Shown: positions 6,465 through 22,684 of the stretch, one piece after another | Layout: every line of letters starts with the position of its first letter | How positions within the stretch are numbered: the first letter of the stretch is position 1 | DNA from: a virus | Length of the DNA: 40,997 nucleotides | Virus genome (UHGV): UHGV-0123923 | Strand: one strand, 5' to 3' | Made by a program: the position numbers and the translations under genes | Notes under the pieces: model-generated | The model's input: the letters and a program-made list of their open reading frames with translations, nothing else | The model's database searches: none | Told to the model about the DNA's origin: nothing

Positions 6465-6481
6465 TATTTTTGACCCTTAGT

Positions 6482-6503
6482 AAAAAGGCCCAATGAAGGG
6501 CCT
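6482..6503 (-). terminator. intrinsic terminator/attenuator between the SSB-like gene and the DNA polymerase gene
   Basis: minus-strand GGCCC-TTCATT-GGGCC followed by TTTTTA, immediately upstream of the polymerase RBS. Confidence 0.5.
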
Positions 6504-6523
6504 TAGTTAAATTGATTCAGATA

Positions 6524-7150
6524 TTAGCGACGACGACGCTCGCGGCGCGGTGCTTCATCTTCTTCGTCGTCTTCCAGGTCATTTACGCTGGCAGCGACTT
6601 TAGAACCGCCAAACGCTTTGCCTTCGCCAATGTATTTAATCGCCAGCAGGTTAACGCCGAGGACTTTATATTTCTGACTGAACCAGATTTCAACGCTTAC
6701 GTTAGCGACGCAGCCGCTGTAAACCTGTTCACCTTCAATCTGTTCGCCGTCTACATTGAAGTCCTGTTCTACCTGAGTCTCGCCTTTTTTAGAGGTTACA
6801 ATCAGTGGCTGTTTCTGTGCCTTCGCCTTGAAGTAGAAGCCTTCCGGGAAGTCTTCAAACGGATTGTCGCGCTCGGCAATGTCTTTAATCGCACATTTAT
6901 CCATGTGCTTACCTTCGCCGTAGTTGGACTTCATCCACTTCTCAGCGGCAGCTGCGCCCAACGCTTCTTCAACCACAGCGTAAACGGTGTCGTAGAGCGC
7001 GTCGATTTGTGCGTGGTCAGACGGCAGGATGATAGTCGCGCTGTACTGGCCTTTAGTGATTGAGCCATCATCGTTTTCACGGTCTTTTTCGCGTTCGAAT
7101 ACGTTAACCCATGCAGTGTTTACTTTACGCAGATTCAGTTTAATACCCAT
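6524..7150 (-). CDS. putative ssDNA-binding protein (DUF2815-like)
   Basis: 208 aa; acidic patch DLEDDEEDEAP near the C-terminus followed by an Arg-rich tail; position between exonuclease and polymerase; family assignment from memory. Confidence 0.45.
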   Translation of the reverse strand: MGIKLNLRKVNTAWVNVFEREKDRENDDGSITKGQYSATIILPSDHAQIDALYDTVYAVVEEALGAAAAEKWMKSNYGEGKHMDKCAIKDIAERDNPFEDFPEGFYFKAKAQKQPLIVTSKKGETQVEQDFNVDGEQIEGEQVYSGCVANVSVEIWFSQKYKVLGVNLLAIKYIGEGKAFGGSKVAASVNDLEDDEEDEAPRRERRRR

Positions 7151-7203
7151 CGTGATTTCTCGCTTTTCAGTTTACTCCGGGAACTGCCCGGCCAGTGATT
7201 AGA

Positions 7204-7232
7204 ACTATAATAGCTAACTATTCGGGTGTCAA
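7204..7232 (-). promoter_or_regulatory. sigma70-like promoter (TTGACA-N17-TATAGT) with operator motif
   Basis: -35 is the reverse complement of 7227..7232, -10 of 7204..7209; AATAG(7209..7213)-CTAA-CTATT(7218..7222). Confidence 0.45.
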
Positions 7233-7236
7233 CACT

Positions 7237-8490
7237 TTATTCCAAATCTTCTTCACTAACCTGATTCCACTCAGGACGTTTGTCGTCTGCCGTTGCGACA
7301 CATGGTGCGCCTGGCTTACGGGTAATAAACGGCTCAAGCGCTGCCATCTCATCCGCCGAAAGAACTTTTGCTGCCTCCGTAGGGGTCATCAATACCTCTT
7401 TTTTGAGAATGTCGCCGTGTGACACTTCAATCGCATCGGCATCTTTCCACGCACGGTTGCCCATCTTACCTTCAACCAGCTTGTACCCAGGAACTTTCTT
7501 ACCGGAATGCAATGCGGCGGTCATCGCTTTCTCAACCTTGTCGATGTGCTGGCGTAACAGCGGCAACTTCTCATACTCAACTACGAGTTGCTCCGTCGTC
7601 AGTTCCAGCACAAAGTCGTCTTCAAGTTCTTCCGCCAGTACAGAATTAACCGTCTTTGTACGCGCGGCACACTGTTCAGAGAACCGGCACCACTGGCAAC
7701 CATCGACCGACGGTTTAAAGTCCGACGCTTTCAGGTTCTTCTTTCCACGGAAATAAGCATCAAGCGCTAACAGTGCCCGTTTCTGTGCGAACTTAGCGAA
7801 CAGTTCCAGACCTTCGACCGAGATGTCCCACTCTGACGCACCCCCCGCGTACGGCTGGAAGATGACCAGGCGCACTACTGTGATGTTATAACGTCTCTTG
7901 AGTCGGCGATAAACACCGAGAGCGTAAAGCATAAGCTGCTTGTTTTCTTTCGCTTCAACACGATGCCGTCCAGTTTTAAGGTCGCCAATAATGAGCATGT
8001 GCTCGTCGGTGTTCGCCAGTTCCTGGACAGCAACGAGGTCAGCCGTTCCGAACGTCTCGACACCTTCATACCCAGGATGCAATACCTCAGTAAGATTGAC
8101 TCGCATTTCCAGCTTGGCGTAAGTCGCTACGTCGATAATCGCTTTGCAGTAGTCGGTGTACTTGCGCACCTGCTCAATCATGTCCGCCGTAATCAGTACC
8201 GCGCCTTTCATTGGGCTGATTAGCGCCTTAATCTGGCCTTTACCTTCATCCAGCACGTAAGCGCCGACTTCACGCTCTAACGGCAGCGCAGCACCTTTGA
8301 TGTACTGGTTAAGATGCATCTCGGCTATGGTGTGCATAGCTGTGCCTAATACCGCGGCTTTACCGGACGTGTTAGGAATATCTTTTTCACAGGCCAGAGA
8401 AGCCGGGCAGGTTAGCCACTTTTTAGCGCCTGACGGTGATAGTAAGGCGTGTACATCGTTATTGCCGCCGCGCTCTTTTAGAATCATCAT
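7237..8490 (-). CDS. Cas4/RecB-like PD-(D/E)XK exonuclease with Fe-S cluster cysteines
   Basis: 417 aa; GGAGGG RBS; N-terminal Cys (LTCPASLAC), core IIGDLKTG, C-terminal C-x2-C-x5-C (CQWCRFSEQC). Confidence 0.7.
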   Translation of the reverse strand: MMILKERGGNNDVHALLSPSGAKKWLTCPASLACEKDIPNTSGKAAVLGTAMHTIAEMHLNQYIKGAALPLEREVGAYVLDEGKGQIKALISPMKGAVLITADMIEQVRKYTDYCKAIIDVATYAKLEMRVNLTEVLHPGYEGVETFGTADLVAVQELANTDEHMLIIGDLKTGRHRVEAKENKQLMLYALGVYRRLKRRYNITVVRLVIFQPYAGGASEWDISVEGLELFAKFAQKRALLALDAYFRGKKNLKASDFKPSVDGCQWCRFSEQCAARTKTVNSVLAEELEDDFVLELTTEQLVVEYEKLPLLRQHIDKVEKAMTAALHSGKKVPGYKLVEGKMGNRAWKDADAIEVSHGDILKKEVLMTPTEAAKVLSADEMAALEPFITRKPGAPCVATADDKRPEWNQVSEEDLE

Positions 8491-8744
8491 TTAGTGCCCT
8501 CCGGCAGTTCCGGTAAATACATCCAGTGAGTTATGCCCATCTCGATATACCGTTTCGTATATAGCTGATTTCCGTTCTCATCCAGCCCAGCCGTAATGTC
8601 GTCGAAATAGTCCTGTATATGTACAAAATCGATCCCACCTTCCGGGAACCCGTTATCGTCATATTTACCACCATCTACTGAGCAAACTAAAACAGAATCA
8701 TCTTTTGACTCCGGCAATGCTTCGTTTACACTAACCCAATTCAT
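8487..8744 (-). CDS. DUF551-like protein
   Basis: start moved to the ATG (MNWVSVNEALP) behind a GGGAGAA RBS; C-terminal THWMYLPELPE motif; paralog at 14096..14296. Confidence 0.5.
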   Translation of the reverse strand: MNWVSVNEALPESKDDSVLVCSVDGGKYDDNGFPEGGIDFVHIQDYFDDITAGLDENGNQLYTKRYIEMGITHWMYLPELPEGTK

Positions 8745-9013
8745 ACCCTGTTCTCCCACTGGTCAATTAAATGTCGCGTCTTATGGTCGCAATGCATAAC
8801 CCAACCATACATCGACTCGAAGACATAAAAGTCAGGTTTTGCGAAAGTCGTGCGCTTAATCTGCGACACGTGGCGGTCTATATCTTTAGGCCGTGGTACT
8901 TTGCCTAAGTACGCCATCTCTTCCATCTGGTGTGCCCCGGACGGCGCACGCAATAACCATAGCGCATCTGTGTTATCCCGCCTGTCCACGGCGCGGTAGA
9001 GTTGGTAAATCAT
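8741..9013 (-). CDS. hypothetical protein (90 aa)
   Basis: GAGGGT RBS; stop overlaps next start (ATGA). Confidence 0.5.
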   Translation of the reverse strand: MIYQLYRAVDRRDNTDALWLLRAPSGAHQMEEMAYLGKVPRPKDIDRHVSQIKRTTFAKPDFYVFESMYGWVMHCDHKTRHLIDQWENRV

Positions 9014-9056
9014 AATCCCGACCCTCGGTTAAAGCGGCCCGAAGGCCGCGGGATAG

Positions 9057-9578
9057 TTATTCTTCTTCGAAATACTTGTTCTTGATTGCTGTCAGGCGCT
9101 CCAGATACTCAGCCAGGTCTTCGTCTTTAATCGCTGCAATCTTCATCTTCTTACCGGTAAACTCTTCCAGCAGTTCGTCAGAATCGTCGCACGCAGCATC
9201 GCTTGGGCCTTCGTTAATCGCATCGTCGATAGCCTGAATCTGGTCGCGCAGAGACTGGTAATCGACTTCTTCTTTCTCTTCTTCCGGCTCTGGCGTTGGT
9301 TCCTCTACTTTGTCCTTACGCGGCTTGCGCTTCGGCTTCTCTTCTTCTGCTGGTTTAGTGTCGACGATGTCTTCACCTTCAACCGGGATTTCTTTCGCCT
9401 TCTCGACTTCTTCAAGTGCTTTAGCCAGTTCTTTTTTAACTGTCTCTACCCCAGTTACCGCGACGTCAACAGTCAATTCACCTACAGATTTGCTAGTCGG
9501 TTGTTTCACACTGTTTGCAGCAATCAGTTCGTGGGCGACTACGAAACGTTCCAGTAATACCAAGAATTTCTCTAACAT
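9057..9578 (-). CDS. highly acidic, low-complexity early protein (173 aa)
   Basis: AGAGGAGAG RBS; first gene after promoter 9609..9637; long Glu/Asp-rich stretches with a central Lys/Pro-rich patch. Confidence 0.55.
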   Translation of the reverse strand: MLEKFLVLLERFVVAHELIAANSVKQPTSKSVGELTVDVAVTGVETVKKELAKALEEVEKAKEIPVEGEDIVDTKPAEEEKPKRKPRKDKVEEPTPEPEEEKEEVDYQSLRDQIQAIDDAINEGPSDAACDDSDELLEEFTGKKMKIAAIKDEDLAEYLERLTAIKNKYFEEE

Positions 9579-9608
9579 TTGTTTCTCTCCTCTCGTTTGG
9601 TATGGGCT

Positions 9609-9637
9609 AACTATAATAGCGAACTATTCACTTGTCA
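9609..9637 (-). promoter_or_regulatory. sigma70-like promoter (TTGACA-N17-TATAGT) with operator motif
   Basis: -35 is the reverse complement of 9632..9637, -10 of 9609..9614; AATAG(9614..9618)-CGAA-CTATT(9623..9627). Confidence 0.5.
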
Positions 9638-9641
9638 ATGG

Positions 9642-9671
9642 GCTTTTCTAAAATAATTAATATGGTACTAT
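9642..9671 (+). promoter_or_regulatory. operator motif with weak promoter upstream of the Cro-like gene
   Basis: AATAT(9658..9662)-GGTA-CTATT(9667..9671); TACTAT -10 at 9665..9670; poor -35 (TTTTCT). Confidence 0.35.
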
Positions 9672-9702
9672 TCACATATCAACTGACTAAGGAGTAATTG
9701 GC

Positions 9703-9918
9703 ATGCAACCATCTGAACTAGGTATCCGTGTAGAGCAACGCCGTAAAGAACTCGGTATCTCCCAGCGCCATCTGGCTGTCCTGGCCGGTGTTTCCCAAGG
9801 CGCAATTAACCAGCTTGCACTCGGTGTAACTCAGGACGTCCGCCCGGCGACGCTGTTTAAACTGGCGGAAGTGCTTGAAGTAGACGCCAAGTGGCTGTCG
9901 TTCGGTGAAGGGGCTTAA
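9703..9918 (+). CDS. XRE-family helix-turn-helix regulator (Cro/CI-like)
   Basis: 71 aa; AAGGAG RBS; HTH signature LGISQRHLAVLAGVSQGAINQLALG. Confidence 0.8.
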   Translation: MQPSELGIRVEQRRKELGISQRHLAVLAGVSQGAINQLALGVTQDVRPATLFKLAEVLEVDAKWLSFGEGA

Positions 9919-9934
9919 CGCCCCTTTCTTTTTA
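9909..9934 (+). terminator. intrinsic terminator after the Cro-like gene
   Basis: AGGGGC-TTAA-CGCCCCT hairpin with the stop codon in the loop, followed by TTTCTTTTTATT. Confidence 0.55.
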
Positions 9935-10129
9935 TTGCACCTTTATCGGGTATCTTTTGCGAAACTTACCTAACCCGCAGTATACGCTGTAAGCCTCTGT
10001 GTAACTGTACACAACATGATACCCGCGCCCGTAAGGAACTACGTTAAGAACTTCCACTACTTCGCCTCTGTGGTTGGTGTATTTATTACCTTTAAGTTCG
10101 TCACTTACTTCTTTAAATTTACCGCTCAT
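9932..10129 (-). CDS. hypothetical protein (65 aa)
   Basis: start overlaps primase stop; no recognisable motif. Confidence 0.4.
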   Translation of the reverse strand: MSGKFKEVSDELKGNKYTNHRGEVVEVLNVVPYGRGYHVVYSYTEAYSVYCGLGKFRKRYPIKVQ

Positions 10130-12393
10130 TCCAAATCCTCCTCTGTCACTGTCAGCATCTCATTCGGTTCATATATTGTCTTCGGAATCTTGTTATCAGT
10201 TATCCGGGTGTTCAGCCTGTAACGGCCAGGGATTATCTGATTGTTTTCGTCAGTCCCCGGAACAAGATACCCAGCCTCAACCATTTTCTTAATCTTCCCG
10301 CGTTCTATGGCTTCTTTGGAGTTAAACGCCTTTGCATTGGGGTCAGACTGTGCGAGCTTATTAGCGGCGGCGACTGTGATGCCTTCGTTGCCGTTGTAGG
10401 TTCCTTCCGCCAGTTCAAACGCCGCCAGTATCGTGGCTTCTGAACTGTTGACGGCGTTCTCTATGGTTTTACGTACGTTTTCTTTACCTTCTTTCGTCAA
10501 CCCTTCTTCCCGCTCTTTCTCCTCGTCAGTCTTGAACGGCTCGAAACCCCACGGCATTAACACAAGTGCCTTATGCGGCTCCGGCAGGTCGAGGTTTACG
10601 ATTGTGCCGTATTCCTCCGTGCTACCGAGGAACTCAACCGCACGGTACTCTTTCGGCGGCGGCGCTTCACGGAACTGTACCGACTCCAGCACCATGCCAA
10701 CCGTCTTCTGTTGCGGCCCGTGCTTAAATTTCGAGTGGTATACATTTATCTGACGGTCGGTAGCTCGTTCGATTGTCAGTTCCACGTCGACGCCAGCATA
10801 CAGCGCCCCACTGCCGCGGGCTTTCTTTCCGCCCTTCGGCGTATGGTGGACAACGCCTACCGCAGCTTTAGTCGCGTCACGTACTTCTTTCAGGATGGCG
10901 ATAACCTTACCCATGCCGATTGCCGTTGATGAACTGTTCTCGTCGAACTTATCAATCGTCAGGGCTAGCGTCTGGTTGAGGGTGTCGAACGCAACCATGC
11001 CGATGGGTTCGTCACCCGCAGTTTCACGCATCAACTTAATCAGGCTTTTCAGTTTTCCGACTTCGCCCATGTCGATGACATGTACATAATCTTTACCTTC
11101 CTCGCCATATTTAGCCGCGAGCGCATCGATACGGGTGCGTGTAGCTGCGCCGCCCTCACCGTCGATATAGAAATGGTGGCAACGCTGGGTGTCAGCACCC
11201 GCAAACCGGTATCCGGCGGCGCTCAGGTACATCATCCCCAGCGTATAGAAGGATTTATACGTACCGGACTCCCCGACGATATCCCATATGCAATCCGACG
11301 GCATGTACCCTTCAACGACGAAATCAGCCTTTACCGGTTCCGGTAACTCGTCCTCCTCTGAGTCCTCGTCGTCTTCAAGGTCGTCCAGGCTGCAAGAAAC
11401 AGATTCACGTGCACCCCATCCGATGGCCTCTGCGACTTCACTGAACGGCAGCCCCGTCGCATCGCACGCATACTTCCACACCTCTTTCGGTGACATGCCT
11501 TCGGTCGCCGTAATGTCAGTGTCGTGAATCATGGTTACGTTCGGCGCCTCATATCCCTCTCGCGGGAAGCACAGCAGGAAGTCATCCGGGCGCGGCGTCG
11601 GGTCGCTGTAGTTTTCTGCGTGTTCTGGCGTAGCTGGCATCTTAAGGCCTCGTGGCGTCATGATACCGCCATACTCGAACGCCAGTGCCTCGAACGCGTC
11701 GGTAAACGCGGTGCGCAGTTCTTCCGGTATCTGGTAATCCGATGCGCTGCTAACGTCAACGGCGGGGATGCCTTCCAGTAACTCGTCCGGGTCAATCAGG
11801 TCGTTGCGGCGTGACCAGATAACGGTAGAGCCAACCGGAGGCAGGTACATCGGTTGCGAAAGAGTGAACCCGCTGCGGTCAGCACCCATGCTTTTGAAGA
11901 AGTGTTCCAGCAATCCATGGCGAACACGGATGATGTCACCACCTTCGACCGGACGGGCCAGCGGCATGACGACGCGAAAGCGCGGGGCCTCGTCGGTATG
12001 TGATGCCGTGGTATAGATACACATGCCCCGGCGGCTGCGTTTAACTAAGCGCACCGCTTCCTGATACTCTTCTGGTGTTGCGCTGTCGAAGTCCAGATAC
12101 GCCAGCGACGATTTGCTTACAGACGCGTCACAGCGATAGAAAAAGCCTTTACGCGCTTGCTTAAAGTCGCCGGTTTCCGGGTCTTTTACAGTGCTGTGCG
12201 TCGAGTCGCACGCGGCGGTGATATAACCGGGCGCGGTCTTCGGGTTAATTCCGTCACGGACAGCATCGAGTGGCTGGATTAACTCTTTCAGGTCGTCCAG
12301 TGTTGCCGTGTGTGTGGTTCTGACGTTTATATCCTTTTTCTCAGCCCGCGCGTTGCGACGCGACCACGAGTAGGATAAAATTACATCGGACAT
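10126..12393 (-). CDS. primase-polymerase (AEP-like) fused to a RecA-like ATPase (primase/helicase)
   Basis: 755 aa; GAAGGAAAT RBS; N-terminal LAYLDFD and SHTDE motifs; C-terminal Walker A GESGTYKS in a DnaB/RepA-like ATPase domain. Confidence 0.7.
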   Translation of the reverse strand: MSDVILSYSWSRRNARAEKKDINVRTTHTATLDDLKELIQPLDAVRDGINPKTAPGYITAACDSTHSTVKDPETGDFKQARKGFFYRCDASVSKSSLAYLDFDSATPEEYQEAVRLVKRSRRGMCIYTTASHTDEAPRFRVVMPLARPVEGGDIIRVRHGLLEHFFKSMGADRSGFTLSQPMYLPPVGSTVIWSRRNDLIDPDELLEGIPAVDVSSASDYQIPEELRTAFTDAFEALAFEYGGIMTPRGLKMPATPEHAENYSDPTPRPDDFLLCFPREGYEAPNVTMIHDTDITATEGMSPKEVWKYACDATGLPFSEVAEAIGWGARESVSCSLDDLEDDEDSEEDELPEPVKADFVVEGYMPSDCIWDIVGESGTYKSFYTLGMMYLSAAGYRFAGADTQRCHHFYIDGEGGAATRTRIDALAAKYGEEGKDYVHVIDMGEVGKLKSLIKLMRETAGDEPIGMVAFDTLNQTLALTIDKFDENSSSTAIGMGKVIAILKEVRDATKAAVGVVHHTPKGGKKARGSGALYAGVDVELTIERATDRQINVYHSKFKHGPQQKTVGMVLESVQFREAPPPKEYRAVEFLGSTEEYGTIVNLDLPEPHKALVLMPWGFEPFKTDEEKEREEGLTKEGKENVRKTIENAVNSSEATILAAFELAEGTYNGNEGITVAAANKLAQSDPNAKAFNSKEAIERGKIKKMVEAGYLVPGTDENNQIIPGRYRLNTRITDNKIPKTIYEPNEMLTVTEEDLE

Positions 12394-12451
12394 GTTATAT
12401 TTCCTTCAGCAAGTAATTTGGCCTCGGCGTTCACCGCGTCGGGGCTTTCTT

Positions 12452-12727
12452 TTATTCCAGGTCGCGGGAGATATTACCCTCGGGCACCAACACTTTTCCA
12501 ATACTTCTCGCTTTCTCTGTAATAGGCGTCGCTCTTGTTGCCCGATAAAACTTTCCTTTATTAAGAATCTCACCATGTCGCTCGAGCACATCTAAAGCAT
12601 GTTTGATCGGGTTTACACCGTAATTATCCAACCGGTATCTCCGAAGCCCGTCTACCGTAAAAGCGCCGTTCGCTTCGGTCAGTCTGCGTGCACACATTAA
12701 TATGTGTTTCTGGAATTTAGTTAGCAT
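12452..12727 (-). CDS. hypothetical protein (~91 aa)
   Basis: start placed at the ATG behind a TAAGGAGA RBS; the longer upstream extension in the ORF track is likely spurious. Confidence 0.4.
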   Translation of the reverse strand: MLTKFQKHILMCARRLTEANGAFTVDGLRRYRLDNYGVNPIKHALDVLERHGEILNKGKFYRATRATPITEKARSIGKVLVPEGNISRDLE

Positions 12728-12896
12728 CTTTAACGTTCTCCTTAATCCACGCCTCCACAGTAGCGCGGTCAAAGGTACCTGGCTGACGGTAGCCGTTGAT
12801 AACGCGGCAACACTCCGGGAACTTTCCTGACCGAAGCCAGCGATTAAGAGTCATAGGGGAAACCCCGATTAAGTCTGCTACTTCTTTCTGTGTCAT
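12717..12896 (-). CDS. AlpA/excisionase-like small HTH DNA-binding protein
   Basis: start placed at ATG (MTQKEVADLIGVSPMTLNRWL) behind a GAGAGGG RBS; first gene of the primase operon. Confidence 0.55.
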   Translation of the reverse strand: MTQKEVADLIGVSPMTLNRWLRSGKFPECCRVINGYRQPGTFDRATVEAWIKENVKDAN

Positions 12897-12925
12897 TTTA
12901 CGCGCCCTCTCTATCAAGTGAAACA

Positions 12926-12954
12926 ACTATAACACCTACAATAGACAAACACAA
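12926..12954 (-). promoter_or_regulatory. candidate promoter of the primase operon (TTGTGT-N17-TATAGT)
   Basis: -10 is the reverse complement of 12926..12931; AATAG(12940..12944) and CTATT(12956..12960) arms flank the -35. Confidence 0.3.
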
Positions 12955-12958
12955 CCTA

Positions 12959-12986
12959 TTGACAAAATAAAATGTAGCTGTAAAAT
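12959..12986 (+). promoter_or_regulatory. candidate rightward promoter (TTGACA-N16-TAAAAT)
   Basis: TTGACA 12959..12964, TAAAAT 12981..12986 preceded by TG; AT-rich surroundings. Confidence 0.4.
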
Positions 12987-13053
12987 CAACGTATCGAATG
13001 GCTTTAGTTAAGAATTACTTAGAAACAATATTCTTAAGTCTCGGGTACTTAAA

Positions 13054-13073
13054 GCCCCGCCATAAAGCGGGGC
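13054..13073. other. conserved GC hairpin element, copy 1 (GCCCCGC-CATAAA-GCGGGGC)
   Basis: 7 bp perfect stem; same stem and flanks recur inverted at 24547..24566. Confidence 0.5.
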
Positions 13074-13317
13074 GCTAAATAGTACTCTTGGTAACGTTAG
13101 TATCTAAGTTTCCTCAAAGTAACAGCAAGTGGCAAGAAAGCCCCCGTCTATTTAAATTTTACCCTCCTTCATAAGCCACTGATAATTAAAAGTTTCTATA
13201 GTTGCCGTAAACGTGGAAGAGAGTACTTCACTTCGCTGGGGTGGGCTAACGCCCACCCACTGCGTTGCGTACTCTTTTAAGAAACGAAAGAATCACAACG
13301 GCAACGTAACTATTCTC

Positions 13318-13346
13318 TTGCACACCCCAACATAATAGGATACTAT
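13318..13346 (+). promoter_or_regulatory. promoter (TTGCAC-N17-TACTAT) with operator motif, for the rightward small-gene block
   Basis: TTGCAC 13318..13323, TACTAT 13341..13346; AATAG(13334..13338)-GATA-CTATT(13343..13347); ~36/39 nt identical to the reverse-strand promoter at 33012..33040. Confidence 0.55.
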
Positions 13347-13380
13347 TCACTTATCGAAACGAGACAGAGGAGTGAGGGTT

Positions 13381-13572
13381 ATGTTTAAACGTGGTCAGTT
13401 GGTTAAATACTCCGACGATAAACACGGCATAATTGAATTAAAATCTGCTTTATTTCCAGGAAAGTACGTAGTTACCGTGCAAAATGTGAGAGGAGTAAAT
13501 TCACAAATATACGTAGCGGAGGAGAACTTAAAACTCATCGGCAACAATTTTAAATTTAAAGGGGCGAAGTGA
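13381..13572 (+). CDS. hypothetical protein (63 aa)
   Basis: ATG behind GAGGAGTGAGGG RBS; the ORF track's upstream GTG start is unlikely. Confidence 0.5.
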   Translation: MFKRGQLVKYSDDKHGIIELKSALFPGKYVVTVQNVRGVNSQIYVAEENLKLIGNNFKFKGAK

Positions 13573-13772
13573 TGGAAGAATTATTTGAAGAACTGAAACA
13601 TCATGATTTCGAGGAAATATATTTCGTAGCTGAACGCTACGAGGTGCATTTATCGGACGGGATTACAATTATTACGATGGATAGCCAGCAAATGCTAAAT
13701 AGCTTACAGGCAATCAAAACGGCATCGAATCGTGATGCTTGTGCCGACGACTCTGAGGGAGGTTGCCGTTAA
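13569..13772 (+). CDS. hypothetical acidic protein (67 aa)
   Basis: ATGA start/stop overlap with the upstream gene. Confidence 0.5.
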   Translation: MMEELFEELKHHDFEEIYFVAERYEVHLSDGITIITMDSQQMLNSLQAIKTASNRDACADDSEGGCR

Positions 13773-13951
13773 TGCGAATCCGTATAACTGACCGCAGGCT
13801 TGTCCGTATAACTGACCGCAGGCTTATAGATTTCGGTATCTCGGTAGGTGATGTTTTTCCGGCGTTCAGCATCAACCATTATGGTTTTATGATTGAGTAC
13901 AAAGGGTCGTTATTGTTCGTGTATCGGGATGAATGTGAGGTTCTGGTATGA
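13772..13951 (+). CDS. hypothetical protein containing an 8-residue tandem peptide repeat
   Basis: ATG behind GAGGGAGG RBS; 24 bp tandem duplication encodes RITDRRLV-RITDRRLI. Confidence 0.45.
   Translation: MRIRITDRRLVRITDRRLIDFGISVGDVFPAFSINHYGFMIEYKGSLLFVYRDECEVLV
13780..13827. repeat. 24 bp tandem direct repeat, 2 copies, 23/24 identical
   Basis: CCGTATAACTGACCGCAGGCTTGT then CCGTATAACTGACCGCAGGCTTAT, read directly. Confidence 0.85.
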
Positions 13952-14103
13952 GAGAAGCATTTGAACGGTGGGCTGTGGTCGAGGGTCTGCCGGTTAACAA
14001 GGGTTCAAAGAAAGAGTACCTGAACGTTAAGACGCGTCTCGCGTGGCGGGCGTGGAAAGCTGGTGTGCAATCCTTGATTGAAAGAGGTGTGAGGTATGGG
14101 TGA
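13948..14103 (+). CDS. hypothetical small protein (51 aa), below the ORF-track cutoff
   Basis: ATGA overlap with the upstream stop; stop overlaps the next gene start. Confidence 0.3.
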   Translation: MREAFERWAVVEGLPVNKGSKKEYLNVKTRLAWRAWKAGVQSLIERGVRYG

Positions 14104-14296
14104 GTGGATTAAGTGTAGCGAGATGCTGCCGGGTAATGGGTATACGGATAAAGAGTTCCTGGTGTATGAAACGTTAAATAACGCAGTTCAGCACGATTAT
14201 TACATAGTTCCTGATGACGGGAGAAAGCCTTTCTGGAATCACTACGATAAGTACGTGACGCACTGGATGCCGTTACCCGAGCCGCCAGAAGTGTGA
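14096..14296 (+). CDS. DUF551-like protein
   Basis: MGEWIKCSEMLP N-terminus and THWMPLPEPPEV C-terminus; paralog of 8487..8744. Confidence 0.5.
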   Translation: MGEWIKCSEMLPGNGYTDKEFLVYETLNNAVQHDYYIVPDDGRKPFWNHYDKYVTHWMPLPEPPEV

Positions 14297-14430
14297 TGTT
14301 CAATAGTTTGGGATTTTACTGAGTGACTTACGCTGCTACACAGCAGCGTACAACTTTAACTTAGTGTCGTCAAAAGGCGACACTTTCATCAAACGCAACA
14401 ATCGAAGCGACTATTGCAGGAGATGCAACA

Positions 14431-14604
14431 ATGATTACTAAAGAACAGGCTGAACGACTAATCACGTTAATCGACACGATGGTTGATGCGAAAACCGATT
14501 TAGCAACGGCAACAGAGGAATCCGCTACCTGGTCGCTTGAAGAAAGAGAGGCAGAAGCGGAAAGGGAGTTACTGGCGTTCATCGACTCTATAACACACCA
14601 ATAA
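14431..14604 (+). CDS. hypothetical small acidic protein (57 aa)
   Basis: ATG behind GGAG; the antisense ORF 14370..14582 in the track is probably its shadow. Confidence 0.3.
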   Translation: MITKEQAERLITLIDTMVDAKTDLATATEESATWSLEEREAEAERELLAFIDSITHQ

Positions 14605-14611
14605 AATTTAC

Positions 14612-14640
14612 TTGCACACTGGGATAGAATAGGCTACTAT
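14612..14640 (+). promoter_or_regulatory. promoter (TTGCAC-N17-TACTAT) with operator motif
   Basis: TTGCAC 14612..14617, TACTAT 14635..14640; AATAG(14628..14632)-GCTA-CTATT(14637..14641). Confidence 0.55.
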
Positions 14641-14670
14641 TCATTTACACGAGCGAGAGGAGAGACAGAG

Positions 14671-14808
14671 ATGGGCTGGTATGGTAGCTGGACTTTAGGC
14701 GAACTGGTAGACGCTTACGAAATAATTAGTAGCACTTCGGTGTGTGACGGCGACACTAAATCGCTGCTAGTCGGGGTGGATGCGAAAAGGGGTGAAGCTG
14801 ATGAGTAA
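14671..14808 (+). CDS. hypothetical small protein (45 aa)
   Basis: strong GAGAGGAGAGA RBS; stop overlaps the next ATG. Confidence 0.3.
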   Translation: MGWYGSWTLGELVDAYEIISSTSVCDGDTKSLLVGVDAKRGEADE

Positions 14809-15346
14809 CAAAAACGAAATATTCGAGTACCTGATCGACCAGCTACGGCAGCAGGTAAATAACAGCCGGAGCGAAGACCCGGCGCATGAGGTGCAGTCAC
14901 TTAAGAATCAGTTACGTGATGCGTCGGCGAAGATTAAGGAGTTGCGGGAAGACAACATTAAGAAATCTGAGCACATATCGCACCTGACAGGGCAAGTTAA
15001 GGAGTTGCATCTGGCATTGGTCGAGGCTACTGGTGACGTGGAGGCATACAAACTTATCCGCAAAGGTGCGTACGGTTCGGAGCAATCTGGTTGCCGAAAA
15101 GAAGATACGCAGGAATGTGACCACAATTGGATTATCGCTCCCGGATTGTTTATTGCCGAAGGCCACAAGGACAACGTGCCCGGTAGCCGGTTTTGCTGCG
15201 AATGCGGCAAGCGTGAGTGGGACGGACTTGAGTATGGGGCAACAGCCTGTACACAGGAGTGCAAACACAGTTTCTATTATGTAATAACAGATGGCTCCGC
15301 GCCGTTCGGTACGAAAGTATGTAAAACGTGCGGGGAATACTTCTGA
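14801..15346 (+). CDS. coiled-coil protein with C-terminal Cys-rich (zinc-binding-like) domain
   Basis: start chosen at the ATG coupled to the upstream stop; C-terminal CDHNW...CCECGK...CTQECKH...CKTCGEYF. Confidence 0.45.
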   Translation: MSNKNEIFEYLIDQLRQQVNNSRSEDPAHEVQSLKNQLRDASAKIKELREDNIKKSEHISHLTGQVKELHLALVEATGDVEAYKLIRKGAYGSEQSGCRKEDTQECDHNWIIAPGLFIAEGHKDNVPGSRFCCECGKREWDGLEYGATACTQECKHSFYYVITDGSAPFGTKVCKTCGEYF

Positions 15347-15549
15347 TGACCAGCATCTTATTTATCTGGGTACTGTCGGCGGGCCAGATGCAACTAGCGG
15401 CATCGGAAACGTTTTATTCGACGGAGGCGTGCCAGTCCGCGGCACGCGCCGCAGAGAACGCACACTTCCTGTTTCAGGGCGACAAGCCCAACGATTCAGA
15501 GGTACGCGCTATCTGCTCACCTAAGCGACTTGGCAATCAGGAGAAGTGA
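15346..15549 (+). CDS. small protein with hydrophobic N-terminus (possible membrane or exported protein)
   Basis: ATG overlaps the upstream stop; MTSILFIWVLSAGQMQLAAS; start uncertain. Confidence 0.4.
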   Translation: MTSILFIWVLSAGQMQLAASETFYSTEACQSAARAAENAHFLFQGDKPNDSEVRAICSPKRLGNQEK

Positions 15550-15731
15550 TTATGGTACAGAGATATTTATTACAAGGCGGTTTTGTCGCCCCGTATGATG
15601 AAGGACACTGGGTATTATATAACGATTATGTAAAACTCGAAGCTGAGTTACAGAAATACAAAGACCAGTTCCCGGATTACGTAGAGTGCGCGAACTGCGG
15701 GTCAATTACACATGTGGAAGGGGTGGAGTGA
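15546..15731 (+). CDS. hypothetical protein, paralog A (MVQRY family)
   Basis: shares MVQRY..G.WVLY.DY..LE..L pattern with the next gene. Confidence 0.45.
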   Translation: MIMVQRYLLQGGFVAPYDEGHWVLYNDYVKLEAELQKYKDQFPDYVECANCGSITHVEGVE

Positions 15732-15910
15732 TGGTGCAGAGATACGAAAACTACCACGGCGATATGTTTCAGGGCGCGGAAGGGCGCTGGGTCCTATACG
15801 AAGACTACGCGGAGCTTGAACGTAAACTGCGTGAGCTTGCTAAGCAGGTAGTAAACAGTCCGTGCGACTGGAAGACGGATGAATTGGCGCGCGAGATTCT
15901 GGACCTATGA
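15731..15910 (+). CDS. hypothetical protein, paralog B (MVQRY family)
   Basis: start moved to internal ATG (MVQRYENYHGDMF) overlapping the upstream stop. Confidence 0.45.
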   Translation: MVQRYENYHGDMFQGAEGRWVLYEDYAELERKLRELAKQVVNSPCDWKTDELAREILDL

Positions 15911-16200
15911 GCCTGGCAACTGACATCCTGAAACGAAGCGGCCTTGCGCCGCTGTCACCGAGAGCTAAAACACAGATATACAAGCGCCGCCGTAACGCGC
16001 TGTACCCTGAGATTCAGGCCCGACGCAAAGCTATCCGCGCCTGTGGCTTCCAGAACGGGAAGGCCGTGAATCTCGGTGAGTTCAAAACACAGGAACGTGC
16101 AGCTATAGCTAATCGGTTATTTAATTACTGGAAATCGCTTGGATACGATGATATTCCGACGAAACCACAGAGACGACAATACATCTGGAGACATAAATAA
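15907..16200 (+). CDS. hypothetical basic protein (97 aa)
   Basis: ATGA overlap with upstream gene; Arg/Lys-rich. Confidence 0.5.
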   Translation: MSLATDILKRSGLAPLSPRAKTQIYKRRRNALYPEIQARRKAIRACGFQNGKAVNLGEFKTQERAAIANRLFNYWKSLGYDDIPTKPQRRQYIWRHK

Positions 16201-16275
16201 ACCGTTATTAAGATAATTCCTAACCGTGCTATCCTCCAGTTACTGCATACTTAATACGCACCTGGAGGATTCATC

Positions 16276-16584
16276 TTGGATAAATTTACTGAAACAGTGA
16301 CGGGGTGGCTTCTCGCTGCCGCACTAGCCGGAGGGGTTATCGGACTACGACAACATAAGTCCGTTATTTCCGGCCCTATCGACGGCTTCTGCTTCATTGC
16401 AACTGGCTTCACTTGCGCCGTATTTGGTGCGCCTCTCGCGGCTCAATGGTTCGGTATTACCGGTGAGCGCGAGATAGCTGGCCTCGGATTCATCATCGCC
16501 ATTCTCTGGATGCCTATCTATTCCCGTCTCTCTGGTATCGTCGCCGGAGAATACATCTCACGTCGAGGAGGCCCGGATGAATGA
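16276..16584 (+). CDS. holin-like membrane protein (about three predicted TM segments)
   Basis: TTG start behind GGAGGA; hydrophobic segments; two genes upstream of the endolysin. Confidence 0.45.
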   Translation: MDKFTETVTGWLLAAALAGGVIGLRQHKSVISGPIDGFCFIATGFTCAVFGAPLAAQWFGITGEREIAGLGFIIAILWMPIYSRLSGIVAGEYISRRGGPDE

Positions 16585-16849
16585 ATTATTCTGGTTCGGC
16601 GGTATGCTGGCAATTGGGGGCACATCGCTGTTTAATGTATATCATCCCAGCGTGGACGACGGGCTATTTGGCCGGGTGCTCTATATCCTGACTGCTATAG
16701 TCTGCGCCGCCGGATGTATCCACCTGTTACAGGGCAGCATGTCACCGACGCTGCCTGAGACATTAATCACATTAGTCGCGCTGCGTCAGATTCGTCAGGC
16801 GTGGTTGTCATACGGAGGATATAAGCGTGTCTCGAAATATTTCAGATAA
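16577..16849 (+). CDS. small membrane protein (two TM; holin/antiholin partner candidate)
   Basis: overlaps neighbours; hydrophobic segments LFWFGGMLAIGGTSLF and VLYILTAIVCAAGCIHLL. Confidence 0.4.
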   Translation: MNELFWFGGMLAIGGTSLFNVYHPSVDDGLFGRVLYILTAIVCAAGCIHLLQGSMSPTLPETLITLVALRQIRQAWLSYGGYKRVSKYFR

Positions 16850-17312
16850 TGGATTGCATTTTACCGCTGCATTTGAGGGATTCCGCGGAACTGCGTATCG
16901 TGCTACGCCGAACGAGAAGTACCTGACTATTGGCTACGGGCACTACGGACCGGACGTAACCCCGGGTAAGACCATCACCCCGGGGCAAGGCCTCCTGTTA
17001 CTGAATCGCGATATGTCTAAAGCCGTAGCTGCGGTTGATGCCGCGGCGCACCATTCGCTTACACAGGCACAGTTCGATGCGGTATGTGACCTGGTGTATA
17101 ACGCAGGTGCTGGCGTGATTGCGTCTACTACGGGCACAGGCAAGGCACTGCGTTCTGGTGATACTGCAACACTGCGGGCTAAGCTGGCGCTGTTCATCAA
17201 CCAGAACGGCAAAACACTACTTGGCCTGCGTCGCCGTACCGCCGGGCGTCTGGCGCTGTTCGAAGGTAAGCCGTGGCAAGAGGCTGAGGCTATTGGGAGG
17301 GCTGTTAAATGA
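16827..17312 (+). CDS. endolysin, glycoside hydrolase family 24 lysozyme
   Basis: GTG start behind GGAGGA; motif TAAFEGFRGTAYRATPNEKYLTIGYGHYG typical of T4/lambda-R type lysozymes. Confidence 0.8.
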   Translation: MSRNISDNGLHFTAAFEGFRGTAYRATPNEKYLTIGYGHYGPDVTPGKTITPGQGLLLLNRDMSKAVAAVDAAAHHSLTQAQFDAVCDLVYNAGAGVIASTTGTGKALRSGDTATLRAKLALFINQNGKTLLGLRRRTAGRLALFEGKPWQEAEAIGRAVK

Positions 17313-17525
17313 TGGGCGAATACGAAGGCGTTTAGTATTCTGGTTAGGCCAAGTTTTTCGTATTTGCCAATGGAGGCCGTTATGGCACTGCAAGAGTTCA
17401 CCAACCCAGTTAAATCTCGTGACGATATTGACGAGCAGGTCGGTTACGGCGAAGGTTGACACCTAAGACTAATCCGACGATACTTAAATCACCTCCTGTT
17501 CCATCCCTCTGCTCTCCAGTTTTAT

Positions 17526-17556
17526 CCCGGCCCTGACCCAGCCGGGATTTTTTTTA
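17526..17556 (+). terminator. intrinsic terminator after the lysis genes
   Basis: CCCGGC-CCTGACCCA-GCCGGG followed by ATTTTTTTTATC. Confidence 0.65.
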
Positions 17557-17577
17557 TCTATCTTCCGCAATGACTAG

Positions 17578-17606
17578 TTGACTATTACTCTCACACCAAT
17601 TATATT
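17578..17606 (+). promoter_or_regulatory. promoter (TTGACT-N17-TATATT)
   Basis: TTGACT 17578..17583, TATATT 17601..17606; ACTATT half-site overlaps the -35. Confidence 0.5.
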
Positions 17607-17639
17607 TACTCCATCGACAACGAGAACGGAGTAGAGAAA

Positions 17640-17780
17640 ATGAAAATCACAGACATCGAAGCATTCAAAGACGCACAACTGATGGCACGCATCGCCGTTA
17701 GTAACCTGAGCAACAGCATTCCAGCGGACGCGTTCTGGTTCGCTGCGATGCAGACACTTAAAGCAGCTTACGCAGGAGAG
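17640..17780 (+). CDS. hypothetical small protein (46 aa)
   Basis: GGAG RBS; ATGA coupling to the next gene. Confidence 0.3.
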
Positions 17781-17944
17781 AAGAAATGAGCGAGTCAGAA
17801 GGAAATATCACGACACCATCCGCCGGGAAGAAAGTCAACCGCACCCCGTTCCCGACACGAGAGGAACTGATGAAACGTAACAGTTTCCCTGGGCCGGACA
17901 AGAACAAGTATCTTAATCGCATGTGGGGAGAGCGTAAAGAATGA
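17777..17944 (+). CDS. hypothetical small protein (55 aa)
   Basis: ATGA overlaps at both ends. Confidence 0.3.
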   Translation, partial: REEMSESEGNITTPSAGKKVNRTPFPTREELMKRNSFPGPDKNKYLNRMWGERKE

Positions 17945-18186
17945 CTGACCGCGAATATGAAAAGATGATGGTAGAGGCTGTTAACGGCGGCGTAGACATC
18001 GGACACGTGATGCACGTCCTGAATACTAAAATCGCGGTAGCTGAGCAAATGGTTGAGTCGCTTTATGAGACGCGCCGTGAACTGATTAACCGCTTCAACC
18101 TGAACAAGTGCGAACATGAGTTCGACTACAATCCGAAGGATATGTGTGGGCAGTGTATTAAATGCGGGGTACAGCGTCATGCCTAA
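17941..18186 (+). CDS. small protein with C-terminal zinc-ribbon-like motif
   Basis: CEHEF...CGQCIKCG. Confidence 0.45.
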   Translation: MTDREYEKMMVEAVNGGVDIGHVMHVLNTKIAVAEQMVESLYETRRELINRFNLNKCEHEFDYNPKDMCGQCIKCGVQRHA

Positions 18187-18427
18187 AATCACAATCGCAT
18201 CGCTCGAGCGCCGTATTCTGGTGCTTGAGTCGGAGAAACAGACGTTAGGCGGGCAACTGTCGATTAACGGTGAGTACCAGTTAGCCGCATTTAAGGTTCT
18301 TCTCATGTTGTTGAGAGGAGAAGAGGAAAAGATGAACGCCTGCGAGCATGATTACCGCCTGCATTTAGTTGATGGGGAGCATCGAGTCACATGCTTAAAA
18401 TGCGGTAAAGCGTATGAAAGCGCCTGA
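18179..18427 (+). CDS. small protein with C-terminal zinc-ribbon-like motif
   Basis: start moved to ATG (MPKITIAS) overlapping the upstream stop; CEHDY...CLKCGK. Confidence 0.45.
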   Translation: MPKITIASLERRILVLESEKQTLGGQLSINGEYQLAAFKVLLMLLRGEEEKMNACEHDYRLHLVDGEHRVTCLKCGKAYESA

Positions 18428-18596
18428 ACCCGTAGTTATCGATGGCGTCCTGTGGAAACCATACTCGGTTAACCACATCGACGCCGACGGGAAGAAGTTT
18501 AGTTTCTACATTTTTGCAATTAGCCGTGAGCACGCCGCCTGTGTGGTCGATGATATACGAGAAACGGCGTGGCTTGGCGATGAGATAGTGGGGTAA
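18414..18596 (+). CDS. hypothetical protein (60 aa)
   Basis: overlapping start; no motif. Confidence 0.45.
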   Translation: MKAPEPVVIDGVLWKPYSVNHIDADGKKFSFYIFAISREHAACVVDDIRETAWLGDEIVG

Positions 18597-18598
18597 GT

Positions 18599-18769
18599 AT
18601 GTTCAGTGACATTAACGCGGCAATCGAAGAAGCAATCTGGCGTCGCTACAACGGCGAGCAACAACGGCACTTCTGCCTGGTGCAGCGCGGTAACGTGATT
18701 GCCGTGGTACAGGACCGCGATAGTAAATATCCGAATGCGATGTGGACAACGAGGAATTTCTTAGGATGA
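18599..18769 (+). CDS. hypothetical small protein (56 aa)
   Basis: ATG 3 nt after the previous stop; stop overlaps the next ATG. Confidence 0.3.
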   Translation: MFSDINAAIEEAIWRRYNGEQQRHFCLVQRGNVIAVVQDRDSKYPNAMWTTRNFLG

Positions 18770-19002
18770 TTACCAGCATTCCGAACCTGATTAAAGAATT
18801 CGGCACGATGGCGGAGACATGCCGACAAACCGGCATCAACGAGATGACGATTGCCAAGTACAGCAAAGACGTTAACTGCGAGCGCCATGTAATTTATAAC
18901 AACCGTCTGATGACGCACGTTAAGACAAGCCCGGTGTTATTCACGCGCCGGGGTATCACTAAAACGGAGCAACGTATTGCTAAAGAGGAGAGTGGGGGAT
19001 GA
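18766..19002 (+). CDS. hypothetical protein, possible HTH
   Basis: start moved to the internal ATG; segment ETCRQTGINEMTIAKYSK resembles an HTH. Confidence 0.4.
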   Translation: MITSIPNLIKEFGTMAETCRQTGINEMTIAKYSKDVNCERHVIYNNRLMTHVKTSPVLFTRRGITKTEQRIAKEESGG

Positions 19003-19157
19003 TTAGTATTCTGGAGTTCATCGACAACCAAGTTTGGTACGAGCCAGAGTTAAATAAGTATTCAGTTAATGGGAAAATATTTCGGCGCAAAGGCCAGGCA
19101 GAGCGTTACGCAGCTAAACTATACCGTCAGCTTGTCAAGGATGGTTTCTTCAAATGA
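18999..19157 (+). CDS. hypothetical small protein (52 aa)
   Basis: ATGA overlap; below the ORF-track cutoff. Confidence 0.3.
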   Translation: MISILEFIDNQVWYEPELNKYSVNGKIFRRKGQAERYAAKLYRQLVKDGFFK

Positions 19158-19259
19158 GACTACTAATCATCCCTAACGCCCGGGCCATTCCCGTAGCTAA
19201 CGACCATTACGGCGGCGACGGTAAAAGAGCACCACGCCACGGCCTATACAACTGATACA

Positions 19260-19284
19260 AGCCCTCTACCGAGGGCTTTTCTGT
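19260..19284 (+). terminator. intrinsic terminator before the packaging genes
   Basis: GCCCTC-TACC-GAGGGC followed by TTTTCTGT. Confidence 0.6.
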
Positions 19285-19376
19285 ACATCCTGCCCAATCA
19301 CCCTATATAATCCCTTTAGACGCGTAGGGCGCGTCTGGTGCGCTCTGATGGTCAGACGCATATGCAAGGGGATTAT

Positions 19377-19922
19377 ATGAAGCTGAAACTCAAGCAGCCA
19401 TCGCCAGAGGTGGTGCAAGCTGCACATGAAGAAGCTGTTAGTGCAAACCGCCGACGTAAACGACCGCGTGGGAAACAGAGCCTTTATCAATCGTCCCGTA
19501 ATTCCGCCGCGTTGTGGGACCCGGACTATTGCGACGCGTTAATCGAGTTCTTCGACCGTACGTCGTGGGAACTTGTGCCTACGTCCAAGGGTGACGAACG
19601 TCCGCTGATTCAGGATAAACCGCCGTCACTGGCCCGCTTCGCCTCACACATCGGCGTAACTATCCCGATTATTAAGCTGTGGCTGCGTGAGATTCCCGCA
19701 TTTGCAGAAGCCTATGAAACAGCACAGGCGCTGGAAGAGGCATATTTCACTGAGACAGGGGCCGCGGGCATCTCTGCTACGTTCGCCGCAGCTAAACTGG
19801 GCCTCGGTAAAGAGAAACCAGTCGAATCCACCGAAGAAACGGCACCGACTGAGATTATTTTTAGTGTTGCAGAGCCTGTAGGTAAAATTGTAACAACGAA
19901 TATGGGTGAGGTAGAGGAATGA
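19377..19922 (+). CDS. terminase small subunit candidate
   Basis: ATG behind AAGGGGA; immediately upstream of and overlapping (ATGA) the large terminase; basic N-terminus. Confidence 0.5.
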   Translation: MKLKLKQPSPEVVQAAHEEAVSANRRRKRPRGKQSLYQSSRNSAALWDPDYCDALIEFFDRTSWELVPTSKGDERPLIQDKPPSLARFASHIGVTIPIIKLWLREIPAFAEAYETAQALEEAYFTETGAAGISATFAAAKLGLGKEKPVESTEETAPTEIIFSVAEPVGKIVTTNMGEVEE

Positions 19923-21169: not shown

Positions 21170-21180
21170 GAGGACAACAA

Positions 21181-22674: not shown

Positions 22675-22684
22675 GTTCACATAT

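Follow-up and report, generated by a model that had tools for sequence, protein, structure and literature searches.

The window analyzed here is the entire 40,997-nucleotide (nt) sequence of the viral genome UHGV-0123923, and our subject is a pair of look-alike predicted promoters lying on opposite strands (one beginning at position 13318 of the plus strand, the other at 33040 of the minus strand) together with the family of palindromic sites to which both belong. The genome, permuted but whole, is that of a virulent siphovirus of the genus Kagunavirus (Guernseyvirinae) infecting Escherichia coli. A megablast search with the segments 12000-16000 and 31500-34500 matched ~300 phage records, the best of them from Escherichia phages K1ind2/3, K1G and K1H (93-98% identity) and the next from Salmonella phages of the genus Jerseyvirus; these matches, combined with a gene order that agrees with complete Kagunavirus genomes, identify the window as a permuted Guernseyvirinae genome. 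Its genes form alternating leftward and rightward blocks (Table 1), with only 6.8% of the genome non-coding. Each promoter faces the gene block named for it in a preliminary description of this DNA: the plus-strand promoter the rightward small genes, which begin at 13381, and the minus-strand promoter the reverse-strand cassette, here the Imm cassette beginning at 32981.

Both promoter strings are present at the places originally reported, and their similarity is strong, although the identity first put at 36 of 39 positions is lower on recount (33 of 39 over the same span). The span divides into 36 positions, from TTGC to CTTA (13318-13353 plus vs. 33005-33040 minus), of which 33 are identical, and three further positions of which none is. 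The flanks of the two modules are unrelated, so that the likeness ends at the promoter edges. A degenerate 36-mer derived from both copies matches these two places only and was not found in any of 100 shuffled sequences, a repeat search recovers both copies as an inverted repeat of 37 nt with 92% complementarity, and the chance expectation for pairs of 36-mers with at most three mismatches in 41 kb is ~3.6e-8. It is from this 36-mer with three mismatches that we take the significance of the pair; the longest exact inverted k-mer, tried as a test, was uninformative (16 in the window vs. 14-18 in shuffles). The third, more diverged relative at 14612 is likewise genuine (28/39 to the 13318 copy and 31/39 to the 33040 copy), with a spacer between -35 and operator that differs from those of the other two modules and varies between genomes. 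The identity within the pair does exceed what -35 and -10 hexamers need, as had been proposed, and some of it probably serves as the binding site of a factor other than sigma-70: ten of the 33 common bases are accounted for by the palindrome described below, and some more by the hexamers. The remaining elements ACCCCAAYAT and CACTTA are missing from the 14612 module and from the Jerseyvirus promoters, i.e., they are not general requirements, and would represent the legacy of an old duplication of the module rather than a second recognition element.

The modules at 13318, 14612 and 33040 are part of a family of about nine sites sharing the 14-base palindrome AATAG-N4-CTATT. Perfect copies start at 3802, 7209, 9615, 13334, 14628 and 33011, and copies with one mismatch start at 9659, 17573 and 24333 and are conserved in relatives. 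When all dyads of the form 5-N(0-8)-5 were counted, this one ranked first in the window (six copies vs. at most two in shuffles) and first or joint-first in K1ind2, phiEc3, M01, Ent2, LSPA1 and wksl3, the runners-up being terminator hairpins. Eight of the nine sites are intergenic, and thus fall within the small non-coding fraction of the genome; the promoter at 3797-3825 sits in the last codons of the resolvase gene. All nine face the next gene or genes, and each overlaps a -35/17-nt/-10 arrangement. No Rfam family was matched anywhere in the window, and hence the sites do not belong to any known RNA.

Table 1. Gene blocks, predicted promoters with their candidate operators, and candidate DNA-binding proteins of the window.
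Feature	Position	Strand or direction	Details
Replication block	~2151-12926	leftward	from gene order
Small genes, lysis genes, terminase, head and tail genes	13381-30553	rightward	from gene order
Four-gene reverse-strand cassette of the 33040 promoter	30582-32981	- (leftward)	Imm superinfection-immunity protein, metallophosphoesterase, HAD-type PNKP phosphatase, P-loop kinase; from gene order
Tail genes	from 33149, round to tailspike at 39-1988	rightward	from gene order
Class-A promoter, leftward gene 3572-3763 and helicase gene	3797-3825	-	TTGACG, 17 nt, TATAGT; operator 3802-3815
Class-A promoter, leftward single-stranded DNA-binding and DNA polymerase genes	7204-7232	-	TTGACA, 17 nt, TATAGT; operator 7209-7222
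Class-A promoter, leftward gene 9057-9578	9610-9638	-	TTGACA, 17 nt, TATAGT, 11/12; operator 9615-9628 in spacer, -25 to -12
Imperfect operator directly 5' of the Cro-like gene (class B, diverged)	9659-9672	+	AATATGGTACTATT; overlaps TG-extended -10 TGgTACTAT 9663-9671
Class-B module, small-gene block	13318-13353	+	-35 TTGCAC 13318-13323; operator AATAGGATACTATT 13334-13347; -10 TACTAT 13341-13346
Class-B module, third relative	14612-14647	+	-35 TTGCAC 14612-14617; operator AATAGGCTACTATT 14628-14641; -10 14635-14640
Class-B module, reverse-strand cassette	33005-33040	-	-35 TTGCGC 33040-33035; operator 33011-33024; -10 TACTAT 33017-33012
Class-C promoter, small genes before terminase	17573-17606	+	TTGACT, 17 nt, TATATT; operator ACTAGTTGACTATT 17573-17586, one mismatch
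Class-C site, second	24333-24366	+	AATAGTTGACTTTT, one mismatch, contains -35 TTGACT; -10 TGcTAAGCT 24358-24366
Putative tail-operon promoter	33028-33055	+ (rightward)	TTGGGG 33028-33033, 16 nt, TGaTAGAAT 33047-33055; read by eye
Cro/C1-type helix-turn-helix protein, 71 aa, favored candidate binder	9703-9918	+	Pfam HTH_3, E = 2e-11; PHROG transcriptional regulator/repressor families
HTH_17 (excisionase/MerR-like) protein, 69 aa, alternative candidate binder	12717-12926	-	promoter without palindrome at 12965-12938
Operator sequence taken as target of the proposed dimer			TGAATAGGGTACTATTCA

The sites fall into three classes, which differ in the register of the palindrome relative to the predicted promoter. 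Class A (3802, 7209 and 9615, all on the minus strand) follows the pattern TTGAC(A/G)-N4-AATAGnnnnCTATT-ATAGT, i.e., a -35 hexamer and, 17 nt on, a -10 TATAGT, the dyad lying at -25 to -12; these are among the best sigma-70 matches of the genome (10-11 of 12 consensus positions). Class B (13334 and 14628 on the plus strand, 33011 on the minus strand and the diverged site 9659 on the plus strand) reads TTGCRC-N10-AATAGgnTACTATT and places the dyad at -19 to -6, so that at 13318 the -10 TACTAT lies inside the right half-site. Its hexamers (TTGCRC, 17 nt, TACTAT) agree with the sigma-70 consensus at only ~7 of 12 positions, while keeping T-12, A-11 and T-7, and fall below the threshold of a promoter scan; an alternative class-B -10 located 10 nt upstream (TATAAT/CATAAT) was rejected, as a matching -35 exists only at 33050-33045 and none at 13318 or 14612. 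Site 9659 has a TG-extended -10 in place of a -35, and would overlap the predicted start site instead if the alternative promoter at 9627-9654 were used. In class C (17573 and 24333, plus strand) TTGA forms the dyad center, the -35 TTGACT lies inside the dyad, and the dyad spans -40 to -27; each class-C site has exactly one imperfect half-site, both in Kagunavirus and in Jerseyvirus, and the site at 24333 is preceded by a perfect 16-bp palindrome, AACTATTCGAATAGTT, at 24324-24339.

Every site thus falls within -40 to -6 of a predicted promoter that lies upstream of, and faces, a gene block; the sites are most likely host sigma-70 promoters that carry the dyad as an added element. The register of the dyad varies between the classes, and a fourth one (-22 to -9) is found at the Jerseyvirus promoter of the Imm cassette. 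Its orientation varies as well: the asymmetric flank of the palindrome (TG before AATAG, which reads as CA behind CTATT) is directed away from the genes served in class A and into them in class B. RNA polymerase or a sigma factor would need its element in a single register and with the flank in a single orientation; the variation therefore argues against such an element and is what would be expected of an operator. In this respect the idea of an extended recognition site, offered in the preliminary description, holds as far as a dyad beyond the needs of sigma-70 is concerned; the sigma-like factor or activator suggested as its reader fits poorly with the varying register and with hexamers that are themselves covered.

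Parts of this repeat family are already on record for sister phages. The PHIRE table for VB_EcoS-Golestan (PMC7203180, Suppl. Table S4) contains seven sites with these sequences at the same genome positions, and that for fBC-Eco01 (PMC9825357, Suppl. Table S2) contains seven sites with the consensus tgAATAGTa-ccTATTat-T; examples from these two sources are TAATAGGATACTATTCACTT 'before ORF54' and TAATAGCGTACTATTCACTT 'before ORF23'. The lists, as far as these tables and the accompanying passages go, consist of 20-mers only, with the fBC-Eco01 sites credited to a phage RNA polymerase, and no mention was found in them of the dyad, of its three registers, of the -35/-10 context or of a candidate regulator (PMC7203180, PMC9825357); a string search of the literature for the motif returned nothing relevant. 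It is the dyad nature of the repeat, the promoter geometry and the probable regulator that are added here to what those tables hold. The label given to the fBC-Eco01 sites, promoters for a phage-encoded RNA polymerase, is almost certainly mistaken for the present family, despite the ease with which PHIRE extracts the 20-mers as the dominant repeat. Each open reading frame (ORF) of at least 400 aa in the window can be assigned a role in replication, packaging or the virion, and the annotations of ten related genomes list no RNA polymerase. In addition, the asymmetric flank of the motif faces opposite ways in classes A and B, the registers are three, and canonical -35/-10 hexamers with 17-nt spacing are present.

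Conservation was followed across 46 related genomes or contigs; the window was compared with eight complete genomes from Kagunavirus and Jerseyvirus and with the surroundings of the Cro-like gene at 37 IMG/VR loci. A loose IMG/VR scan with TAATAG-N4-CTATTCAC returned mostly chance matches in unrelated contigs and was replaced by whole related genomes. At orthologous sites the half-sites are 90-100% conserved and the central four nucleotides drift, with at least 11 variants at site 3802 (e.g., TTCG, CTAG, CTCG, TGTT, CGTT, TTCA and TCCG) and seven at site 9615 (e.g., CGAA, TGAA, CTGA, CTAA and CAAA). The site orthologous to that of the 13318 module is kept in 31 distinct related sequences, and operator 9659-9672 is nearly invariant in 40. 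Fixed half-sites 9 bp apart around a free center are the pattern expected of a dimeric protein. They bear on a simpler account, in which these are plain sigma-70 promoter paralogues served by no dedicated regulator, the dyad being a by-product of -10-like hexamers on both strands (TATAAT/TATAGT/TACTAT). Indeed, the half-sites overlap -10-like hexamers in classes A and B, class-A sites carry TATAGT and, 2 nt away on the opposite strand, TATAAT, and the class-B flank CACTT is the reverse complement of the -35-proximal AAGTG of the class-A promoter at 9615, which suggests common descent with inversion. Nevertheless, we regard this account as unlikely. The class-B left half-site lies at -19 to -15 and the class-C dyad covers the -35, where sigma-70 has no use for AATAG; the half-sites are conserved across two genera while adjacent spacer bases vary; AATAG at -19 to -15 and the non-consensus C of TACTAT are fixed though sigma-70 requires neither; and a fixed spacing with a free 4-nt center is the signature of a dimeric reader.

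The same comparison bears on the origin of the look-alike pair, for which a recent duplication, with promoter capture when the cassette was acquired, had been suggested. Duplication of a promoter module is the part of that suggestion that we favor, and neither its recency nor its tie to the cassette finds support. Each paralogue holds its own diagnostic bases (CAACAT..GGATAC at 13318 vs. CAATAT..GGGTAC at 33040) in most Kagunavirus genomes examined, so that the duplication must be old and each copy maintained, and the flanks are unlike. The cassette itself is present across Kagunavirus and Jerseyvirus, and the Jerseyvirus promoter in front of it differs while carrying the same palindrome: it reads TTGCAT-N7-AATAGTGTCCTATT, mirrored by TTGACG on the other strand, with the palindrome 3 nt closer to the -35. 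As the Jerseyvirus promoter of the small-gene block (TGGCRC-N10-dyad) differs too, the near-identity of the 13318/33040 pair is specific to Kagunavirus. The pair is thus best explained as old paralogues of a promoter-operator module of ~36 bp, duplicated within the Kagunavirus lineage. The Jerseyvirus phage Ent2 carries, at the orthologous place (37893-37970), what looks like a decayed promoter of the 13318 type, TTGTATACCCCAACATAACAGGATGCTATTCACTTATCG, with its own functional-looking promoter ~500 bp downstream; this decayed copy suggests that 13318 is the older location.

A search of related phages for the same promoter, which the preliminary description had proposed, located the exact 32-nt class-B pattern at 60 places in IMG/VR. 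They are confined to 36 contigs, with one to three copies each; these contigs are 11.6-45 kb long (34 of them 24-45 kb) and are mostly ones already found as Kagunavirus relatives. Among 5,426 complete E. coli genomes none matches the 47-nt promoter, which is, therefore, neither host-derived nor prophage-borne. In the head module of some relatives, the interval from the head-decoration genes to the spanin genes holds further reverse-strand inserts, each preceded by an extra copy of the 33040 type (phiEc3 4579; Ro145c2 10597; M01 4510 and 6260; LSPA1 7279); the window has no insert at this locus, and the genes behind these copies differ (a 67-aa ORF, endonuclease VII in LSPA1, and others). Judged by this distribution, the module behaves like an early promoter that can be redeployed for genes running counter to late transcription.

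Two helix-turn-helix (HTH) proteins encoded in the replication block are the main candidates for reading the dyad (Table 1). The best solved homologue of the 9703-9918 product is 434 Cro, also of 71 aa (E = 4e-7, 42% identity), and the Gln that opens the recognition helix is common to both. Its gene is the sole rightward one among the leftward replication genes, and a terminator follows it at 9907-9927; site 9659 lies directly upstream of it and site 9615 75 bp away, within a divergent promoter region in which the two operators are 44 bp apart from center to center. The protein is 94-97% identical within Kagunavirus, and tblastn finds matches in 502 phage records. The HTH_17 protein is present in both Kagunavirus and Jerseyvirus. 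434 Cro binds as a dimer to 14-bp dyad operators and short excisionase-type HTH_17 proteins usually bind direct repeats, and this difference favors the Cro-like protein as the binder. In Cornellvirus (PhiSTP1, GRNsp27) its orthologue is 39-42% identical, and the equivalent boxes read ATTAG-N4-GTA(T/A)T; a changed box alongside a diverged protein fits co-evolution, suggestively at most. Cornellvirus also speaks to the notion that the dyad is the site of an enterobacterial transcription factor exploited by the phage, since it shares the same Salmonella hosts and yet its box has changed together with the phage protein set. Although the known hosts of motif-bearing phages are all Enterobacterales, this notion is very unlikely, given also that the promoter is unmatched in the E. 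coli genomes searched; AATAG-N4-CTATT is not known to be the consensus of any E. coli regulator.

Two further genes deserve mention in connection with these candidates. The product of 18742-19002 (plus strand), in the block after the lysis genes, has a weak, sub-threshold Pfam match (E = 1.8e-4) to phage NinH, a family of small DNA-binding proteins, and is a possible third candidate binder. Beside the Cro-like gene, at a cI-like position, 9057-9578 (minus strand) encodes a 173-aa protein with no Pfam domain that belongs to PHROG 3127, a family of unknown function; at least 120 matches are listed for it, all with 91% identity or more, and one source names it '13.88 kDa late protein', which we take to be a legacy name, possibly from Salmonella phage MB78.

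Overall, a 14-bp dyad with conserved half-sites and a free center, its overlap with the core promoter, and a candidate cognate HTH gene with a site of its own lead us to favor, on balance, an interpretation of the dyad as the operator of a phage-encoded dimeric HTH repressor, most likely the 9703-9918 product, built into about nine sigma-70 promoters. Each module would then be a host sigma-70 promoter with the dyad AATAG-N4-CTATT built in: between -35 and -10 of the three leftward replication promoters in class A, over the -10 for the small-gene block, the Cro-like gene and the Imm cassette in class B, and, with one mismatch, over the -35 of the two promoters before late genes in class C. An HTH dimer sitting on these operators would block RNA polymerase, an exclusion that we infer from the overlap of the sites with the core promoter. 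As the protein accumulates, early transcription would be turned down in a coordinated manner, and the protein would autoregulate via the weaker site before its own gene.

Several observations weigh against this interpretation or leave room beside it. The recognition helix of the Jerseyvirus protein (SQSLITH) differs at four of seven positions from that of Kagunavirus (SQGAINQ), and the half-site is unchanged. The HTH_17 protein was not detected in Cornellvirus and is present exactly where AATAG-N4-CTATT is, and on this comparison it is an equally lineage-consistent candidate. CTATT and AATAG overlap -10-like sequences, such that their conservation could partly reflect promoter function alone, and class-B promoters with only ~7/12 agreement to the sigma-70 consensus give room for a positive factor. 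The sole Kagunavirus RNA-seq study, a time course of phage K1B4, yields gene-level time classes (one HTH gene early, Imm in the class that peaks after 100 min, in an unsynchronised culture) that are too coarse to map promoters.

Back to back with the 33040 promoter, and overlapping its -35 region, lies the putative rightward promoter of the tail operon at 33028-33055; a simple promoter scan did not call it, but its TGnTAGAAT element is kept in four Kagunavirus genomes (K1ind2, K1G, phiEc3 and M01). The operator center would be at ~-44.5 from its predicted start, a classical activator position. Together with the weak class-B hexamers, this would suit a dyad that is the target of a phage positive factor (an activator or an RNA polymerase appropriator) firing the class-B promoters, and the related Salmonella phage MB78 is said, in a report from the 1990s, to have a strong promoter without a -35 consensus that interacts with a phage-specific factor. 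We nevertheless consider a positive factor quite unlikely: the same dyad is found in near-consensus class-A promoters that need no help, it covers -10 or -35 hexamers, where a bound protein should exclude polymerase, its register varies, and a Pfam scan of 40 window proteins detected no sigma, RNA polymerase or MotA/AsiA-like domain (many small ORFs still being without function).

The repressor interpretation can be carried further, into a scenario that we hold to be rather unlikely and offer as speculation. The whole transcription program of a virulent subfamily could be run by one CI-less 434-Cro-like protein and one 14-bp operator used in three registers, with perfect vs. one-mismatch sites ordering the shut-off. 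At the Imm cassette, a bound dimer would close the early leftward promoter while occupying ~-44.5 of the tail promoter, the place that lambda CI takes up when it activates PRM, and would thereby provide an early-to-late switch. The class-B module would then be a portable plug of 32-36 bp that puts inserted reverse-strand genes under the same clock, e.g., the Imm cassette, endonuclease VII and the small head-module ORFs of phiEc3, M01, Ro145c2 and LSPA1.

Among known systems, 434 Cro with its OR/OL operators (as well as P22 Cro/C2) is the closest in kind. It shares with the present case a small single-domain HTH_3 protein (71 aa, at the level of identity given above), a 14-bp dyad whose outer bases are conserved and whose center is free, the overlap with sigma-70 promoters, and two operators in a divergent promoter region beside the regulator gene. 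It differs in that the present phage is strictly virulent, with single operators over about nine promoters rather than clustered triplets and with a half-site AATAG rather than ACAA. The annotations of ten related genomes contain no CI-like, S24 peptidase or integrase gene and likewise no immunity region, i.e., neither the CI partner nor the lysogeny module of a lambdoid CI/Cro bistable switch. In mycobacteriophage L5, whose gp71 acts on 'stoperators', and in Streptomyces phage phiC31, with its conserved inverted repeats, one regulator serves many dispersed, near-identical sites, which are found genome-wide, on both strands, and at or near promoters, as here. Those regulators, however, are immunity repressors of temperate phages, and the L5 sites are asymmetric and also occur inside transcription units, whereas all sites of the present virulent phage are on promoter cores. 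The middle promoters of T4 (MotA/AsiA) similarly add a phage-specific element to host-type promoters with coordinated timing, but the MotA box is fixed in position, replaces the -35 and is not a dyad, and no MotA/AsiA-like protein is among the 40 scanned here.

The feature is thus real and non-random. In kind it is ordinary, a set of related promoter-operators in a virulent phage, and it leaves the general understanding of phage regulation unchanged. Its interest is more specific: Kagunavirus and Jerseyvirus phages rank with those most often proposed for biocontrol and therapy directed at E. coli K1, the urinary tract and Salmonella, and their regulation is essentially unstudied. Reading the published 'phage promoters' as sigma-70 promoters with a common dyad operator would correct an annotation error (as no phage RNA polymerase is found), would give a compact model of early shut-off in Guernseyvirinae phages, and would supply a promoter-operator part with its probable cognate repressor for engineering or for timing payload genes.

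Some further observations concern the surroundings of the sites. The only recognizable strong promoters without the palindrome are a divergent pair at 12938-12986 (plus strand 12959-12986, TTGACA-16-TAAAAT, 11/12; minus strand 12965-12938), within a 390-nt non-coding stretch (12927-13317) between the HTH_17 gene and the 13318 promoter. This stretch has no Rfam match, contains AATAG (12940) and CTATT (12956) with a gap of 11 nt rather than 4, and carries one hairpin at 13050-13077, which repeats the terminator at 24543-24570 in inverted form (96%), and another at 13240-13260; it could be a leader or a small RNA. The palindrome AACTATTCGAATAGTT has its half-sites in the opposite order and abuts the class-C promoter at 24338-24366, ~190 nt 3' of which a terminator-like hairpin (24547-24566) stands before the spanin gene at 24591; no ORF of at least 40 aa occurs there on that strand, and a short non-coding transcript may be made there. 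Near-identical GC-rich hairpin terminators (AAGGCCCCGAAAGGGGCCTTTT) mark module boundaries at 1986-2014, 22685-22702, 24245-24273 and 30551-30579, and several of this type have T-runs on both strands and are, hence, probably bidirectional. Finally, the small ORF 13763-13951 contains a perfect 23-nt direct repeat, TCCGTATAACTGACCGCAGGCTT, present twice at 24-nt spacing (13779-13825), which represents an in-frame tandem duplication of eight codons.

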